A stretch of 64,000 bases of DNA from a virus. Numbering within the stretch: the first letter of the stretch is position 1; every line of letters begins with the position of its first letter. The stretch lies in the IMG/VR virus record IMGVR_UViG_3300020204_000053. The stretch is one strand, 5' to 3'. Below the pieces are notes generated by a model. The model was given only the letters and a program-made list of their open reading frames with translations. It was not told the origin of the DNA and did no database searches. A program made the translations under genes and the position numbers. Positions 11,074-15,756 of this stretch are shown one piece after another.

Positions 11074-12315
11074 CTATAAATAGATGTAATTCATGACTTG
11101 TTCAAGGTCATTGTAAACCAATTTATCTTTGAAATCCAAGTGAGATCTATGTTCACCTTCATTCCACATCCAATCCTTAAAACCCAAATCAATAATCCTT
11201 TGGTGTATTTTTTGATCAAAATGATCCTTGATTAACCTTGCTCTCCTATTGATATCAATTACGTTGTTGTCAACTGTGCTATTTCTGTTGTTGTATTGTA
11301 AATATAGAAGTTTTTTTACATGGATGAATTTTGTCTCTAAGAAGGTTCTCACAATTAGTTCATAATCATCTGCTACAGGTAATCTTTTATTGTGGCCTCC
11401 TACTTTCAGATAAACATTCTTGTTCCATGCTCTCACGTGATTTGGCATCGAAAAATTGTATCTTATTGATAAAGGGTTAATATCAGAATAACGGTGACTT
11501 AGAAAATTGTCTACCCCATTTTTTATCCAATGATGTATCCCGTAACCGACGTTAAACGTGTTACGAGGATTGGAGTATCCTTGGTCACCCCAAATGTCAG
11601 TATAATATTTCATTTCGCCGTCATCATATAATTCACAAACCTCTGAATACATGAATCCAGCGTCAGGAAATTTGTTTGATGCATTGTCGAGTTCTTCTAA
11701 ACAAGTTGGTAAAAGATAATCATCGTGATCAAGTTCCACCAACCACTCTCCCTCACTAAGATGACACGCTCTGTTTTTTACCAAACCAACGATTCCATTA
11801 GAGATAGGTGTGACTTTATATGGTTTAACCCTGAAGTCTTGAGAGGAAATCTGTTGTATATTATTCCAAGTATCTTCATCAGGAGAGTCATCGACTATAA
11901 TCCATTCCCAATCCGTGTACGTTTGGTTGGATAAACTTTCATATGTTCTATAGATTCTTTCACCTGTTTTGTAAGTTGGTGTAAAAATTGAAAATTTTGG
12001 TGCAATTTTTGAAGAGTTTCTGAATGTAGTTTCACATACAATAATATTTGCGATTACATTGTCAGGAAATATTTCATCAATCGTTACTATTCTACGGTTC
12101 AATGAATCCAAATTAGATTGAAGTTGTTTACCTATAGTTAATATAATATCTGGATCATGTTCAATAAAATCTTGTCGAAAGTTGTTAATGTGTTTTTTTG
12201 AATGAACTTTAACCTTTTCGGATAATCCTTCCCAATGGTAAACATCGGAAATTAATTCGAAGGTTCCGATTCTATCCCAACCATATACTAATGCTACGGG
12301 TAATTTTGTCTTCAT
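11074..12315 (-). CDS. Glycosyltransferase family 2 (GT-A) protein with N-terminal extra domain
   Basis: FSIFTPTYK...SLSNQTYTDWEWIIVDDSPDED and ELDHDDYLLP (DxD-type) motifs. Confidence 0.75.
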   Translation of the reverse strand: MKTKLPVALVYGWDRIGTFELISDVYHWEGLSEKVKVHSKKHINNFRQDFIEHDPDIILTIGKQLQSNLDSLNRRIVTIDEIFPDNVIANIIVCETTFRNSSKIAPKFSIFTPTYKTGERIYRTYESLSNQTYTDWEWIIVDDSPDEDTWNNIQQISSQDFRVKPYKVTPISNGIVGLVKNRACHLSEGEWLVELDHDDYLLPTCLEELDNASNKFPDAGFMYSEVCELYDDGEMKYYTDIWGDQGYSNPRNTFNVGYGIHHWIKNGVDNFLSHRYSDINPLSIRYNFSMPNHVRAWNKNVYLKVGGHNKRLPVADDYELIVRTFLETKFIHVKKLLYLQYNNRNSTVDNNVIDINRRARLIKDHFDQKIHQRIIDLGFKDWMWNEGEHRSHLDFKDKLVYNDLEQVMNYIYL

Positions 12316-13007
12316 ACGTGTTTAAACAAAGCCATATGAGGTTCGGATATCTCATGAATTGGTCTTTCTTTTGTAAAATAATAAAGTGCAAATGATAATC
12401 TATCAACTTCTTCAGGTGTTTTCAATGGACCAGGATGACCATGGTATGCTTTATCTGATATCGAAAATATAACAGCTCTGTTGAATATTGGATCAATTTT
12501 TTTAACACAGGTTTTCAAATCGGGGGTCCACAATTGAAGGTCTCCTCCCCACTCTTTTTTCCAATCTTTATTGAGATAAAGAAGTAAATTCAATCTCCTA
12601 TGAAGTTTGGTGATCGGATGATAATTGTAATCAACATGCACTGATAATCTACCTCTCGATTTAATCCTATGTATTCCACCACCATAATAGGTTGGATCAG
12701 GGATTAATTCTTTTATTCCAGTGAGTTCCTCCAAATATTTCAGAACTTCGGTTGAATTCATGAATCCAAGAACATTATTTACATATTCAGGGAATCCTGA
12801 ACACAAGTACAACTTTCTGAATTGATGTTCACCGCCAGCGTCCTCCTCCTCTCCTTTGTCATGTTCCCAATTATTTATAAAAGGTATTTCATTAACTGCC
12901 TTTTTCAAATATGACTCGTTCATGAAGTTGTCAATTACGATGTGAGGAAATGGATACGCGGTTGCGTATTGAGTCTTGAGATATTTCGGTAACTTGAGAT
13001 CAATCAT
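12312..13007 (-). CDS. Prolyl 4-hydroxylase-like 2OG-Fe(II) oxygenase
   Basis: RLSVHVDYNYHP...RLNLLLYLNKDWKKEWGGDLQLW...NRAVIFSISDKAYHGHPGP matches P4Hc pattern HxD...R..TxLlYLN..GGeL...H; ATGA overlap with GT2 gene. Confidence 0.75.
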   Translation of the reverse strand: MIDLKLPKYLKTQYATAYPFPHIVIDNFMNESYLKKAVNEIPFINNWEHDKGEEEDAGGEHQFRKLYLCSGFPEYVNNVLGFMNSTEVLKYLEELTGIKELIPDPTYYGGGIHRIKSRGRLSVHVDYNYHPITKLHRRLNLLLYLNKDWKKEWGGDLQLWTPDLKTCVKKIDPIFNRAVIFSISDKAYHGHPGPLKTPEEVDRLSFALYYFTKERPIHEISEPHMALFKHV

Positions 13008-13045
13008 GAATTAAAAATAGAAAAAATATTATTAAAAATAAATCA

Positions 13046-13399
13046 TTAGTCACCATCGGCTTCGTAAAACGAAACAATAAATTCTAAATGTAAGGAGGTG
13101 ACGTGTTTATATCTATTCAGGTGACAGTAAGCTTTGAATCCGCCACTTGAATTCAGATAAGCAACATCTGGTTTTAAATCCTCACATTTTAACGCACCGT
13201 TTATACACCCCAAAAGTAAATATTCAGCAGTTTCCCTGAGTTTTTCCATGGGTGGAGGTGTTTGTGGTACGGTTCCCCATCTCCACCTTAAAGCTTTCAT
13301 TGTGAGATATACTTTTTCGAAGTCGAAGTTTTCTAATACCTCGTCAATCATCTTCTGTATGTCGTGTCTCGGACTTGCCATGAGTTTTTGGTTTTCCAT
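13046..13399 (-). CDS. Hypothetical protein (true start probably internal; overlaps upstream ORF)
   Basis: 117-aa ORF. Confidence 0.4.
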   Translation of the reverse strand: MENQKLMASPRHDIQKMIDEVLENFDFEKVYLTMKALRWRWGTVPQTPPPMEKLRETAEYLLLGCINGALKCEDLKPDVAYLNSSGGFKAYCHLNRYKHVTSLHLEFIVSFYEADGD

Positions 13400-13730
13400 T
13401 TTCGTCTAAAAGCACGAAAACAATTTCATCAATTCTAATAATTGATTGTTTTGTATTTTTGTTTCTAACGTCGCAGGAGACCGTTATAGACGTGTTTCCA
13501 AATTTGACTACTTCACATCCAATCTCAACAATATCTCCCGTTTTTGCGGTCTGTACGAAGTTTATAGCGGACATTGCCTTGGTCACTATGTTTGTGGATT
13601 CAAGTTGACAGATACAGAAGATTGCAGCCTCCTCATCGATCCACTTTAATACCTGTCCACCAAACAATGTACCTCGGGAGTTTAAATCTTCTGGCTTAAT
13701 TAATTTTCTTGTTCTATATTTCATGTCCAA
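13344..13730 (-). CDS. Acyl-CoA thioesterase, hotdog fold (YciA/4HBT-like)
   Basis: KPEDLNSRGTLFGGQVLKWIDEEAAIF...TKAMSAINFVQTAKTGDIVEIGCEVVKFGNTSITV. Confidence 0.7.
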   Translation of the reverse strand: MDMKYRTRKLIKPEDLNSRGTLFGGQVLKWIDEEAAIFCICQLESTNIVTKAMSAINFVQTAKTGDIVEIGCEVVKFGNTSITVSCDVRNKNTKQSIIRIDEIVFVLLDENGKPKTHGKSETRHTEDD

Positions 13731-14298: not shown

Positions 14299-14307
14299 AT
14301 ATAATAA

Positions 14308-14338
14308 AAACCCCTCATTTTTGGAGGGGTTTTTATTA
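14308..14338 (-). terminator. Rho-independent terminator (CCCCTC..GAGGGG hairpin flanked by A-run/T-run)
   Basis: aaaaacccctcatttttggaggggttttt immediately downstream of 14336..15091 on minus strand. Confidence 0.5.
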
Positions 14339-15091
14339 TTTAGTTAACATAGGAATCACACTCTCTGTAGATCCGTTCCATTTTTTTATTTGGTTCTTTG
14401 GTATCCAAAATTCCATAACTCCGATTTCCTCGACCCTGCGGAGATATCTCTCACGGAAGGCTTCCGCTTCATGGACGCTTGTTATGTATTCCACTTTCAT
14501 GTGTGAGGCACATATCTTACCCATTTTGGTTAACATAGAAAACTCATCAGTAAGAGTTCTACCACAACACATACAAACGTCACCACGCTTAATAGTCATT
14601 TTGCCTTCGAACATAACCGCTTTTGGAGATACTGCTCTAAGTTTGACAATATCCAAAAGAACAGGATTAAACTCAAGACCGTATTTTTCTTTCAACATAA
14701 TACCGATTTTACGACCTATCATGATTGTTTCACCGGGTGTTGGCCAATTCATCCGAATAGTTTTTTCCTTATCTTCTTCCTTTTGAATCTGAGCCAAAGC
14801 GGTTGAGATTTGCTTTGAGGTAAGTGTACCCCACTTTTGAAATTTGGAAGCGATGTCCTTAACGAATGGGTTCTCACCCTTGTATTCGACGATACGCTTC
14901 ACGTTTTCAGGTAACTCCTCCTTGTTTATAGTCTTAACCTCGGAGTTAAGAGCCTTCTCGGTAGCGGCGAGCTGCTTAGGAGTAAGACCTCCCCATCTTT
15001 TAAGGGCGTCTTTCATGTTGAGGATGAAACGGTTTTGACCTTGGTAGTTACGAACTTTGTCTTGAACTGAAACTTGGGTTGTGGTAGTCAT
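14336..15091 (-). CDS. Hypothetical protein (Cys cluster CMCCGRT...CASH near C-terminus)
   Basis: 251-aa ORF. Confidence 0.55.
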   Translation of the reverse strand: MTTTTQVSVQDKVRNYQGQNRFILNMKDALKRWGGLTPKQLAATEKALNSEVKTINKEELPENVKRIVEYKGENPFVKDIASKFQKWGTLTSKQISTALAQIQKEEDKEKTIRMNWPTPGETIMIGRKIGIMLKEKYGLEFNPVLLDIVKLRAVSPKAVMFEGKMTIKRGDVCMCCGRTLTDEFSMLTKMGKICASHMKVEYITSVHEAEAFRERYLRRVEEIGVMEFWIPKNQIKKWNGSTESVIPMLTK

Positions 15092-15159
15092 GGTGTGTGT
15101 TTTGTGAATACAAAGATAGTAATTTCAGACGAATTACCATAATTTTTTTTACAAAAAAA

Positions 15160-15756
15160 TTAATCCAAATAAACTAACCAAGTAGCAATTATGTATTTGT
15201 CGTTAGAGATTGGTTTGAATCCACAATGTACAAAAGGGAAGGAACTTGGAAAAATAACTAAACCACCTTTGGATGGCTTGATTTTTATCTCGGGGTAAAG
15301 GAATCCTGTTTCCCCACCTTGATAAACATCGTTTAGGTAAACAATCATTGAAAATGATCTTGCCGAGCTTTTTAAATTTTCAACCTCAACATGCCACGAT
15401 TCGTAGTGTCCTTCACCCTTTTTGTATTTTTGGATTTGACAAGTCTCATAGGTTGAAGAACCAGGAAATAATTTTTTATCTGCATCAAAAGAATACCTGA
15501 ACGGTAAATTATTGAGAAAATGATCACTTAAGTGTTTATTTATAACACTGAAAAAATTCTCATGATTTACCAACTCAGGGTGGTCATATAAATTAATTTC
15601 AGTAGTATTTTTTACATCGAAGTCAACACCCCCCATCATTGATCCCACATTAACGTTATCATCTTTTTCAAGGTCATTGAAAAGTTTCAGCAATGAGTCA
15701 CAAAACTCATCTGAGAATACATTTTCTTTATAATAAATAAATTTAGATAAGTCCAT
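15160..15756 (-). CDS. Prolyl 4-hydroxylase-like 2OG-Fe(II) oxygenase (second copy; HxE variant)
   Basis: WHVEVENLKSSARSFSMIVYLNDVYQGGETGF...FVHCGFKPISNDKYIIATWL: near-consensus P4H YLNDV..GGET.F core and C-terminal His/RxS-like end. Confidence 0.7.
   Translation of the reverse strand: MDLSKFIYYKENVFSDEFCDSLLKLFNDLEKDDNVNVGSMMGGVDFDVKNTTEINLYDHPELVNHENFFSVINKHLSDHFLNNLPFRYSFDADKKLFPGSSTYETCQIQKYKKGEGHYESWHVEVENLKSSARSFSMIVYLNDVYQGGETGFLYPEIKIKPSKGGLVIFPSSFPFVHCGFKPISNDKYIIATWLVYLD

Follow-up and report, generated by a model that had tools for sequence, protein, structure and literature searches.

The locus

IMG/VR record IMGVR_UViG_3300020204_000053 is a stretch of 64,000 nucleotides of viral DNA, which we refer to as the window in the following. 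Between positions 11074 and 15756 it encodes a block of genes that includes two 2-oxoglutarate (2OG)- and Fe(II)-dependent oxygenases, here termed Oxy1 and Oxy2, and a glycosyltransferase, here termed GT2. Three collagen-like fibre genes and a gene for a PLOD-like protein lie elsewhere in the window. The features central to this study are:

11074-12315, minus strand: GT2, a GT-A glycosyltransferase of 413 amino acids (PF00535, E 1e-16)
12312-13007, minus strand: Oxy1, a single-domain 2OG-Fe(II) oxygenase of 231 amino acids (PF13640, E 1.8e-17; PF13661, E 3.7e-10)
15160-15756, minus strand: Oxy2, a 2OG-Fe(II) oxygenase of 198 amino acids (PF13640, E 2.9e-11; phrog_61, E 3.8e-39)
35765-38551, 38544-41474 and 41474-44620, minus strand: three collagen-like fibre genes (Pfam Collagen, E 3.7e-42 to 6.7e-102; Peptidase_S74)
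48033-50795, minus strand: the PLOD-like protein, with a COLGALT1-like GT25 domain, an LH3-type glycosyltransferase domain and an LH3 accessory domain

The source of the window is an uncultured large freshwater phage. Proteins identical to those of the window are found on contigs from samples 3300020197, 3300021376 and 3300020190, which we take to be Lake Tanganyika metagenomes, and syntenic relatives are located on contigs of 214-304 kb; the genomes of this lineage are probably well over 200 kb in size. The window, which also codes for a sigma-70 factor, an amidase, DNA methylases and many small open reading frames (ORFs), has a G+C content of ~33%, rising to 0.43-0.55 over positions 36001-44000, where the collagen-like genes lie. 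This rise is a composition effect of GGN/CCN-rich repeats, not a mark of foreign DNA. At the DNA level, a megablast search with the block returned no match among phage records.

Two oxygenases of different clades

In the initial annotation of this DNA, both oxygenases were credited with a prolyl 4-hydroxylase (P4Hc) signature. This holds insofar as both are 2OG oxygenases of the protein-hydroxylase type: PF13640 is found in each, as are the double-stranded beta-helix fold of the 2OG-Fe(II) oxygenase superfamily, an iron triad and a basic residue. They represent different clades, however, with only Oxy2 resembling the collagen prolyl 4-hydroxylases (P4Hs), whereas Oxy1 is similar to PHD and OGFOD1 enzymes.

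An alignment of 49 Oxy1 family members shows the invariant residues H124-x-D126, H189/H191 and R203, which comprise the iron triad and the basic residue that binds the C5-carboxylate of 2OG. With this complete set of catalytic residues, and with a confident AlphaFold model (predicted local distance difference test (pLDDT) score ~93), Oxy1 is predicted to be an intact enzyme. The family profile finds OGFOD1 (3.4e-10), TaPHD and PhyA in the PDB, the best structural neighbours are Tpa1, OGFOD1, PPHD and PHDs, and homologues carry the JGI label ‘Tpa1-like’. Oxy1 thus belongs to the clade of PHD/OGFOD1/Tpa1 prolyl hydroxylases. Collagen P4Hs are not among its nearest neighbours in structure or sequence, nor are the nucleic-acid oxygenases TET, JBP and AlkB among the nearest in structure. 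While its catalytic domain resembles those of OGFOD1 and Tpa1, the second, C-terminal double-stranded beta-helix-like domain of these proteins is not present in Oxy1, which consists of one domain within its 231 amino acids and has homologues of 230-260 amino acids.

In Oxy2, the invariant residues in an alignment of 36 family members are H122, H177 and K187, and the metal-binding motif is H122-V-E124. The initial annotation had pointed to an HVE motif as the first metal ligand in place of HxD, and the family alignment bears this out. At position 124, close relatives have Glu and distant ones Asp, and the HVE motif is accordingly a lineage variant. A pairwise phmmer alignment had suggested H117-Y-E119 as the motif instead, a candidate that we dropped as only H122 and E124 are conserved. 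Allowing for the E/D exchange at position 124, the catalytic residue set is complete, and the enzyme is predicted to be intact (AlphaFold2 pLDDT 93.2). Searched against the PDB, the family profile retrieves P4Hs only: BaP4H of B. anthracis over its full length (4e-14), vCPH of PBCV-1 (1.3e-10), CrP4H (1.2e-7) and C-P4H-II (4e-5). The Oxy2 clade is therefore that of the collagen prolyl-4-hydroxylases (P4Hc). Relatives of Oxy2 are present in 460 phage records.

For comparison with lysyl hydroxylases (LHs), we built an alignment of LH domains (A5) from environmental and cyanophage PLOD-like proteins, which matches mimivirus L230 (2.9e-77) and LH3 (1.2e-69). Against it, the Oxy2 family scores an hhalign probability of 97.3% (E 2e-11, 162 columns), and Oxy2 is the sole protein of the window that is detected by the LH-domain hidden Markov model (HMM; E 9e-9). 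For Oxy1, the hhalign probability is 0.6%, that is, no match. Oxy2 is thus distantly related to LH domains and closer to P4Hs; despite this profile-level relatedness it is not itself an LH domain, as the LH signature PHHDSS...EGGGxRF...HPGRLTHYHEG is not found in Oxy2 and no LH is among the PDB hits of its profile.

A search for further 2OG oxygenases in the 64 kb, in which Pfam was applied to 75 further ORFs, and three family HMMs to every ORF and to the six-frame translations, yielded none that is recognisable besides Oxy1 and Oxy2. Contigs that carry the end genes of the window likewise hold no further 2OG oxygenase in the ~6.5 kb past its right end and the ~3 kb past its left end.

GT2 and its coupling to Oxy1

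GT2 combines the PF00535 domain with a DxD-type motif within ELDHDD, its invariant residues being D142, D143 and D196-H-D198-D199, and it matches the chondroitin synthase K4CP in the PDB (2.8e-13). In phage records, a tblastn search recovered no full-length orthologue, the matches in S-CRM01 and a metagenomic phage of 735 kb being partial. The initial annotation described an ATGA overlap between the first oxygenase and an upstream glycosyltransferase gene. By direct reading the overlap is real (...CAC GTA TGA with ATG AAG ACA), but the order is the reverse: on the coding strand, Oxy1 lies upstream and its stop codon overlaps the start codon of GT2 downstream. The proposed coupling of a hydroxylase with a glycosyltransferase gains from the wider comparison, as the 4-bp overlap is kept in relatives and as both functions are joined in one polypeptide in other phages: 7 contigs encode a fusion protein that comprises the Oxy1 domain, a second GT2 domain and a helical repeat region.

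Collagen-like fibres and the PLOD-like protein

Each of the three fibres ends in a C-terminal S74 chaperone domain. In their triplets, proline is found mainly at the X position (250 X-position prolines), and the Y position is taken by Gln, Thr and Lys. Thr accounts for 14-42% of Y positions, with many GPT and GxT triplets, and Lys for 12%, 11% and 1% in the three genes, that is, for 11-12% in colA and colB. In a comparison of phage loci, Lys at Y goes together with an LH-type domain: the median share of Lys is 9.7% (range 5.7-32.7%) in loci with such a domain and 0% (maximum 4.3%) in loci without. LH activity is therefore expected in the phage of the window.

The PLOD-like protein can be aligned with COLGALT1 (residues 4-248) as well as with LH3 (residues 14-178 and 187-492). 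Its sequence terminates at the point where an LH domain should begin, in agreement with the initial annotation that the protein lacks an oxygenase domain of its own. This LH-less architecture is common to relatives of 45-96% identity, while other environmental homologues have a fused LH domain. PLOD-like loci were also sought in IMG/VR with a pattern-based search, which returned 3 weak loci only. Within its LH3-type glycosyltransferase domain, the protein of the window harbors an inserted METTL9/DREV-like methyltransferase domain. As the genomes of the lineage are probably well over 200 kb in size, a gene for an LH could lie outside the window.

Genomic neighbourhoods in viruses and cells

For the comparison of viral neighbourhoods, we used three sets of 80 IMG/VR loci, one per family (Oxy2, Oxy1 and GT2), with the Oxy2-family set serving as control for an association between GT2 and collagen-like genes. 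Locus-level tests are Fisher tests, and cluster-level counts refer to clusters at 80% identity.

Viral orthologues of GT2 share 50-56% identity over their full length and are found on contigs of up to 321 kb. A collagen-like gene is present in 33/80 of their loci, always upstream and on the same strand, as compared to 2/80 in the Oxy2-family control (p 9e-10 at the locus level), and this link is seen in 15 of 30 clusters. The gap between fibre and GT2 usually measures 600-660 bp and contains one 2OG oxygenase of ~200 amino acids, which is of a PKHD-like type that we term oxB; we rejected it as an orthologue of Oxy2, from which it is distinct. Given the 2/80 loci, we also dropped the notion that Oxy2-family genes are generally linked to collagen-like genes. 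Thirteen GT2 loci have an LH-domain protein encoded just downstream of GT2, and collagen-like genes are found in 13/13 of these. In one locus (L255), two fibres, an oxygenase, GT2 and a protein with LH and PLOD-like parts are arranged in one array. The fibres linked to GT2 commonly but not universally have proline at X, and the triplets that they share are GAQ/GPQ and GxT/GxS.

For Oxy1, the association depends on the presence of GT2. A GT2 orthologue occurs in 15/80 Oxy1 loci and is adjacent in 13 of these, with three different adjacent arrangements, the fusion with a second GT2 domain being one of them. A collagen-like ORF is found 2-8 kb upstream on the same strand in 11/15 Oxy1 loci with GT2 versus 2/65 without (p 9e-9 by locus; 4/7 versus 2/27 by cluster, p ~0.01). 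Fibres beside such Oxy1-GT2 cassettes have 0% Lys at Y, and Oxy1 is therefore not a lysyl hydroxylase for these partner fibres. An S74 domain like that of the fibres of the window is present in 18 of the 23 collagen-like ORFs in the combined Oxy1 and Oxy2 loci (14 loci, nearly all of them Oxy1 loci).

A further arrangement was found in the cyanomyoviruses S-CAM9 and S-8S55 by tblastn with the PLOD-like protein. They encode a coupled run of a tail fibre, a 128-amino acid gene, two oxygenases termed oxA and oxB, and a GT25-PLOD-LH protein. The tail fibre has a collagen-like region with 44% Lys at Y and an S74-type C-terminus, oxA belongs to the Oxy2 family (HMM E 3e-26 to 4e-28) and is 30-39% identical to Oxy2, oxB is a PKHD-like oxygenase, and the last protein, of 613-621 amino acids, unites GT25, a PLOD-type glycosyltransferase and a genuine LH domain (E 1e-27). 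Since oxA stands beside a true LH domain, a non-LH activity can be argued for it.

Homologues of GT2 are also found in cells. With 30-44% identity to GT2, they have a collagen-like ORF within 3 kb in 49/80 loci, upstream and on the same strand in 38 of those 49. The taxa in question include many species of Micromonospora, Thiothrix/Thiolinea, Methylococcus, Neobacillus, Acidimicrobiia and others, which suggests a widespread family of bacterial glycosyltransferases for collagen-like proteins. Almost none of the cellular loci have a 2OG oxygenase; the oxygenases look like a phage-specific addition to GT2, and GT2 may act directly on Thr or Ser.

A proposed toolkit for fibre modification and its alternatives

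On balance, we favour the view that GT2 and Oxy1, and with less certainty Oxy2, modify the collagen-like tail fibres of the phage and have become displaced from the fibre genes. An action on these fibres had been proposed in the initial annotation, and it is in line with the neighbourhoods, in which collagen-like fibre genes are repeatedly followed by members of the GT2 family, by Oxy1 homologues paired with a GT2 or by an Oxy2-family gene. The three enzymes of the block would then be components of a recurrent phage toolkit by which such fibres are modified post-translationally. Judging by its neighbourhood, GT2 would O-glycosylate the fibres, the acceptor probably being the Thr or Ser that occupies Y in GxT/GxS triplets or, alternatively, a hydroxylated residue. 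Oxy1, to which it is coupled, would hydroxylate a residue other than lysine, the likeliest being the X-position proline of GPT/GPQ, and Oxy2 may hydroxylate a fibre proline or, with lower probability, a lysine; Oxy2 would also be the only candidate within the window to supply hydroxylysine to the LH-less COLGALT/PLOD-like glycosyltransferase. The hotdog thioesterase and the flavodoxin-like protein of the block would be unrelated neighbours. The folds, catalytic residues, clades and neighbourhood statistics behind this view are established, and it is the substrates and the order of the reactions that we infer.

A more far-reaching version, to which we give distinctly less credence, is that large aquatic phages possess an undescribed collagen-modification cassette, in which PHD/OGFOD1-, PKHD-, P4Hc- and LH-type oxygenases are combined with a dedicated GT2 and in which Oxy1 and GT2 glycosylate hydroxylated non-lysine residues of the fibres. 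An example would be O-glycosylated hydroxyproline at GPT/GPQ, which would tune fibre stability or host recognition; to our knowledge, this chemistry is so far known from eukaryotes only (Skp1 and the hydroxyproline-rich glycoproteins of plants). The enzyme kinds as such are already known. In the literature that we searched, we found no description of phage cassettes of collagen hydroxylases and glycosyltransferases: the combination of collagen-like fibres with several types of 2OG oxygenase and GT2 is undescribed there, and so is a PHD/OGFOD1-type hydroxylase fused to a GT2 domain.

Several observations weigh against fibre modification by the block. Although the GT2 family as such is found next to collagen-like genes, the fibre genes of the window lie some 20-24 kb away from the block, and the window lacks an oxygenase of the oxB type, which in other loci is the commonest to separate a fibre gene from GT2. 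Some 80% of the Oxy1-family loci have neither GT2 nor collagen-like genes; distant Oxy1 homologues of ~50% identity, for example, adjoin ClpP in other big phages without GT2. The distance between Oxy1 and GT2 amounts to 20-200 kb in certain relatives, as for the loci L151 and L242, which share a contig, and L174 and L205, which share another. The fold of Oxy2 is widespread in phages generally (293 BFVD matches), and collagen-like genes are near the true Oxy2-family loci only in the 2/80 cases mentioned above. Some GT2-linked fibres have little or no proline (2% in L246, 0% in L187). GT2 need not depend on hydroxylation, as its bacterial homologues occur without an oxygenase. Finally, proximity alone is not proof, as the fibre-proximal hypervariable regions of aquatic myophages are generally enriched in glycosyltransferases (PMC7029224).

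The alternative closest to the initial annotation is that one of the two oxygenases is the missing lysyl hydroxylase, which would provide hydroxylysine at GxK for the LH-less GT25/PLOD-like enzyme. For Oxy1, this is contradicted and effectively excluded by the absence of Lys at Y in its partner fibres elsewhere and by the 0.6% LH profile match. For Oxy2, it is conceivable though rather doubtful. The 11-12% Lys at Y in colA and colB, the correlation of Lys at Y with LH-type domains, the 97.3% alignment to these domains and the detection of Oxy2 alone in the window by the LH-domain HMM all speak for it, but the profile matches P4Hs and no LH in the PDB, the LH signature is missing, and the 2OG-binding position is occupied by Lys instead of Arg. 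Moreover, the co-occurrence of cyanophage oxA with a true fused LH domain implies a different activity, and the 214-304 kb size of related contigs leaves room for an LH gene beyond the window.

Since most members of these families are not near fibres, three further explanations have to be weighed against fibre modification. The genes could be host-directed auxiliary genes, with Oxy1 hydroxylating a translation protein of the host (EF-Tu or the ribosomal protein uS12), in the manner of PPHD and OGFOD1/Tpa1, or acting as a switch responsive to 2OG and oxygen, GT2 on host surface polysaccharide, and Oxy2 as a generic cyanophage-type enzyme. The Tpa1, OGFOD1, PPHD and PHD neighbours of Oxy1 and the Tpa1-like label of its homologues fit this idea, as do the many Oxy1-family loci that lie amid replication or ClpP genes without a fibre or GT2 nearby, the occurrence of Oxy2 relatives across hundreds of cyanomyophage genomes, and the proposal that glycosyltransferases of aquatic myophages alter host lipopolysaccharide (PMC7029224). 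We nevertheless deem it improbable, as it explains neither the recurrence of GT2 and of Oxy1 paired with GT2 immediately after collagen-like genes on the same strand, nor the Oxy1-GT2 fusion, nor the bacterial link between GT2 and collagen-like genes, and as Oxy1 lacks the second domain of OGFOD1 and Tpa1. Less probable still, the oxygenases might tailor a glycan, nucleotide-sugar or small molecule, the product of which is moved by GT2, while the hotdog and flavodoxin proteins might add acyl or redox steps. Cassettes of other phages do hold an NDP-sugar 4,6-dehydratase/epimerase and a UDP-galactopyranose-mutase-like flavoenzyme, and the hotdog gene is kept beside Oxy1 in the lineage of the window; the top sequence and structure matches of both oxygenases, however, are protein prolyl hydroxylases, and the hotdog and flavodoxin genes are missing from nearly all other cassettes. 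Hydroxylation of nucleic-acid bases followed by glycosylation, in the style of TET/JBP with a glycosyltransferase, or AlkB-type repair, appears very unlikely: weak PHROG matches labelled ‘DNA endonuclease V’ and the presence of DNA methyltransferases in the window are consistent with it, but these methylases are of the N6/N4 types and not C5, neither oxygenase is nearest to TET, JBP or AlkB, and the association with collagen-like genes would be left unexplained.

Neighbouring genes

The remaining genes of the block and other features of the window are:

10688-11071, minus strand: protein of 127 amino acids with an HEWIH (HExxH) motif, kept directly after GT2
13046-13399, minus strand: protein of 117 amino acids with no assigned function, kept upstream of Oxy1; a homologue lies upstream of GT2 in L189
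13344-13730, minus strand: hotdog thioesterase (4HBT, YciA-like; 4HBT E 4.5e-16)
13714-14298, minus strand: Flavodoxin_2 (NQO/KefF-like) oxidoreductase (PF02525, E 3.8e-19)
14336-15091, minus strand: protein of 251 amino acids with a DUF6011-like Cys motif, kept between Oxy2 and Oxy1 in relatives
15756-16232, minus strand: Cys-rich small protein with CxxC motifs, probable start M17 (142 amino acids); its stop overlaps the start of Oxy2 by 1 nt
46384-48036, minus strand: protein of 550 amino acids with no assigned fold, sharing 4 bases (48033-48036) with the end of the PLOD-like gene
53616-54542: full DnaJ

In relatives of 70-85% identity, the order of the block is 142-amino acid gene, Oxy2, 251-amino acid gene, a variable slot, hotdog, small gene, Oxy1, GT2 and 127-amino acid gene. 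Scans of the block for promoters and terminators gave nothing above chance and are uninformative on operon structure. In another lineage (L213), a homologue of the Cys-rich 142-amino acid protein (7465-7815) is encoded directly upstream of an Oxy1 homologue, and a homologue of the 251-amino acid protein lies between Oxy1 and GT2; the Cys-rich protein may be a partner of either oxygenase. For the 127-amino acid protein no family match was found, and its HExxH motif hints at a small metallopeptidase-like protein. The 550-amino acid protein has no Pfam or PDB match and no detectable family; in the relatives on 214-304 kb contigs, the PLOD-like gene is always followed by a gene for a protein of 535-558 amino acids.

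The hotdog and flavodoxin genes had been noticed in the initial annotation as members of the same block. Both are present, and Pfam confirms their identity, but neither belongs to the recurrent cassette. The hotdog gene is kept beside Oxy1 in the phage lineage of the window only and is found elsewhere in 1/80 Oxy1 loci and 2/80 Oxy2 loci. The flavodoxin-like gene is present in 0/160 other oxygenase loci; it fills the variable slot, in which relatives hold Plug/OMP-barrel and beta-helix genes or a 151-amino acid gene. We therefore rejected both as cassette members, regarding them as lineage-specific or variable neighbours. The Plug/OMP-barrel genes of relatives encode proteins of 725-852 amino acids that resemble TonB-dependent receptors (Plug and OMP beta-barrel) and are accompanied by a beta-helix protein (L001 5806-9233, L021 14161-16719); in L001, they sit in the very slot that holds the flavodoxin gene in the window.

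Fibre-proximal cassettes of other phages (L144 3490-4104, L146 8262-9995, L199 9383-9991) hold DUF6445 proteins, sometimes fused to a GT2 domain, as well as NDP-sugar dehydratase/epimerase and UDP-galactopyranose-mutase-like genes. The window itself has an unusual set of auxiliary genes, with the full DnaJ, a cobalamin adenosyltransferase, a pterin-4a carbinolamine dehydratase and a Band_7/SPFH protein, as well as an Fe-S assembly protein, an APS-kinase-like protein, an Hc1 histone-like protein, a thioredoxin, a glutaredoxin and PspC-domain proteins.

Implications

Few auxiliary genes of aquatic phages are commoner than those for 2OG-Fe(II) oxygenases, and we know of no substrate for any phage member of this superfamily; the neighbourhoods described here provide a concrete hypothesis for a subset of them. 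If it is true, the hydroxylation and glycosylation of collagen, documented so far in animals and mimivirus, extend to bacteriophages, and the GT2 family may do the same beside bacterial collagen-like proteins. Modification of the fibres could affect receptor binding, thermal stability and protease resistance, and hence host range. As the run of fibre, oxygenases and PLOD-like protein exists in the cultured cyanophages S-CAM9 and S-8S55, the hypothesis is testable.

Comparison with known systems

In C. difficile, the glycosyltransferase SgtA adds beta-O-GlcNAc to Thr (or Ser) in the GPT triplets of BclA3, a collagen-like protein of the exosporium (PMC7157674). There, the glycosyltransferase gene adjoins the collagen-like gene, as is the case for the GT2 family in 33/80 viral and 49/80 cellular loci, and the fibres of the window have GPT triplets like BclA3. 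By contrast, in the window GT2 lies 23 kb from the fibres and is not adjacent to them, and the likeness drawn here between SgtA and GT2 is one of neighbourhood. Furthermore, the phage GT2 has 2OG oxygenases coupled to it, and the bacterial loci are without such enzymes.

Viral collagen modification has a precedent in mimivirus L230, a lysyl hydroxylase fused to a glucosyltransferase. In this system, as in that of LH3 (PLOD3) and COLGALT1, a collagen side chain is hydroxylated and then glycosylated. The window encodes COLGALT1-like and LH3-type glycosyltransferase domains, and fusions of such glycosyltransferases with genuine LH domains occur in other phages. In the PLOD-like protein of the window, however, the LH domain is lacking and a methyltransferase is inserted; at the profile level, Oxy1 is unrelated to LH and Oxy2 distantly related, and the glycosyltransferase that is coupled to Oxy1 is a GT2 rather than a PLOD/GT25 enzyme.

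For Oxy1, the enzymes to compare are OGFOD1/Tpa1, PHD2, Pseudomonas PPHD and Dictyostelium PhyA, with which it shares the 2OG-binding Arg. In Dictyostelium, PhyA and Gnt1 hydroxylate and then glycosylate a proline of Skp1, which is a precedent for the sequence of events discussed here. Unlike these proteins, Oxy1 is viral and single-domain, and its partners are GT2 and collagen-like fibres instead of Skp1, HIF, EF-Tu or uS12.

Oxy2, in turn, compares to the P4Hs of Bacillus anthracis, PBCV-1 (vCPH) and Chlamydomonas, which its profile matches over the full length (E 4e-14 to 1e-7) and with which it shares the 2OG-binding Lys and the YLND...GGET motif. It differs from them by its HxE in place of HxD, and the identity amounts to only 22-28%. 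Animal C-P4H prefers proline at Y, whereas the fibres of the window carry it mainly at X. Within phages, Oxy2 resembles the cyanophage 2OG oxygenases of PHROG 61, as its phrog_61 match illustrates; what sets a subset of these apart is its position, which ties it to collagen-like tail fibres and PLOD-like enzymes, as in S-CAM9 and S-8S55.

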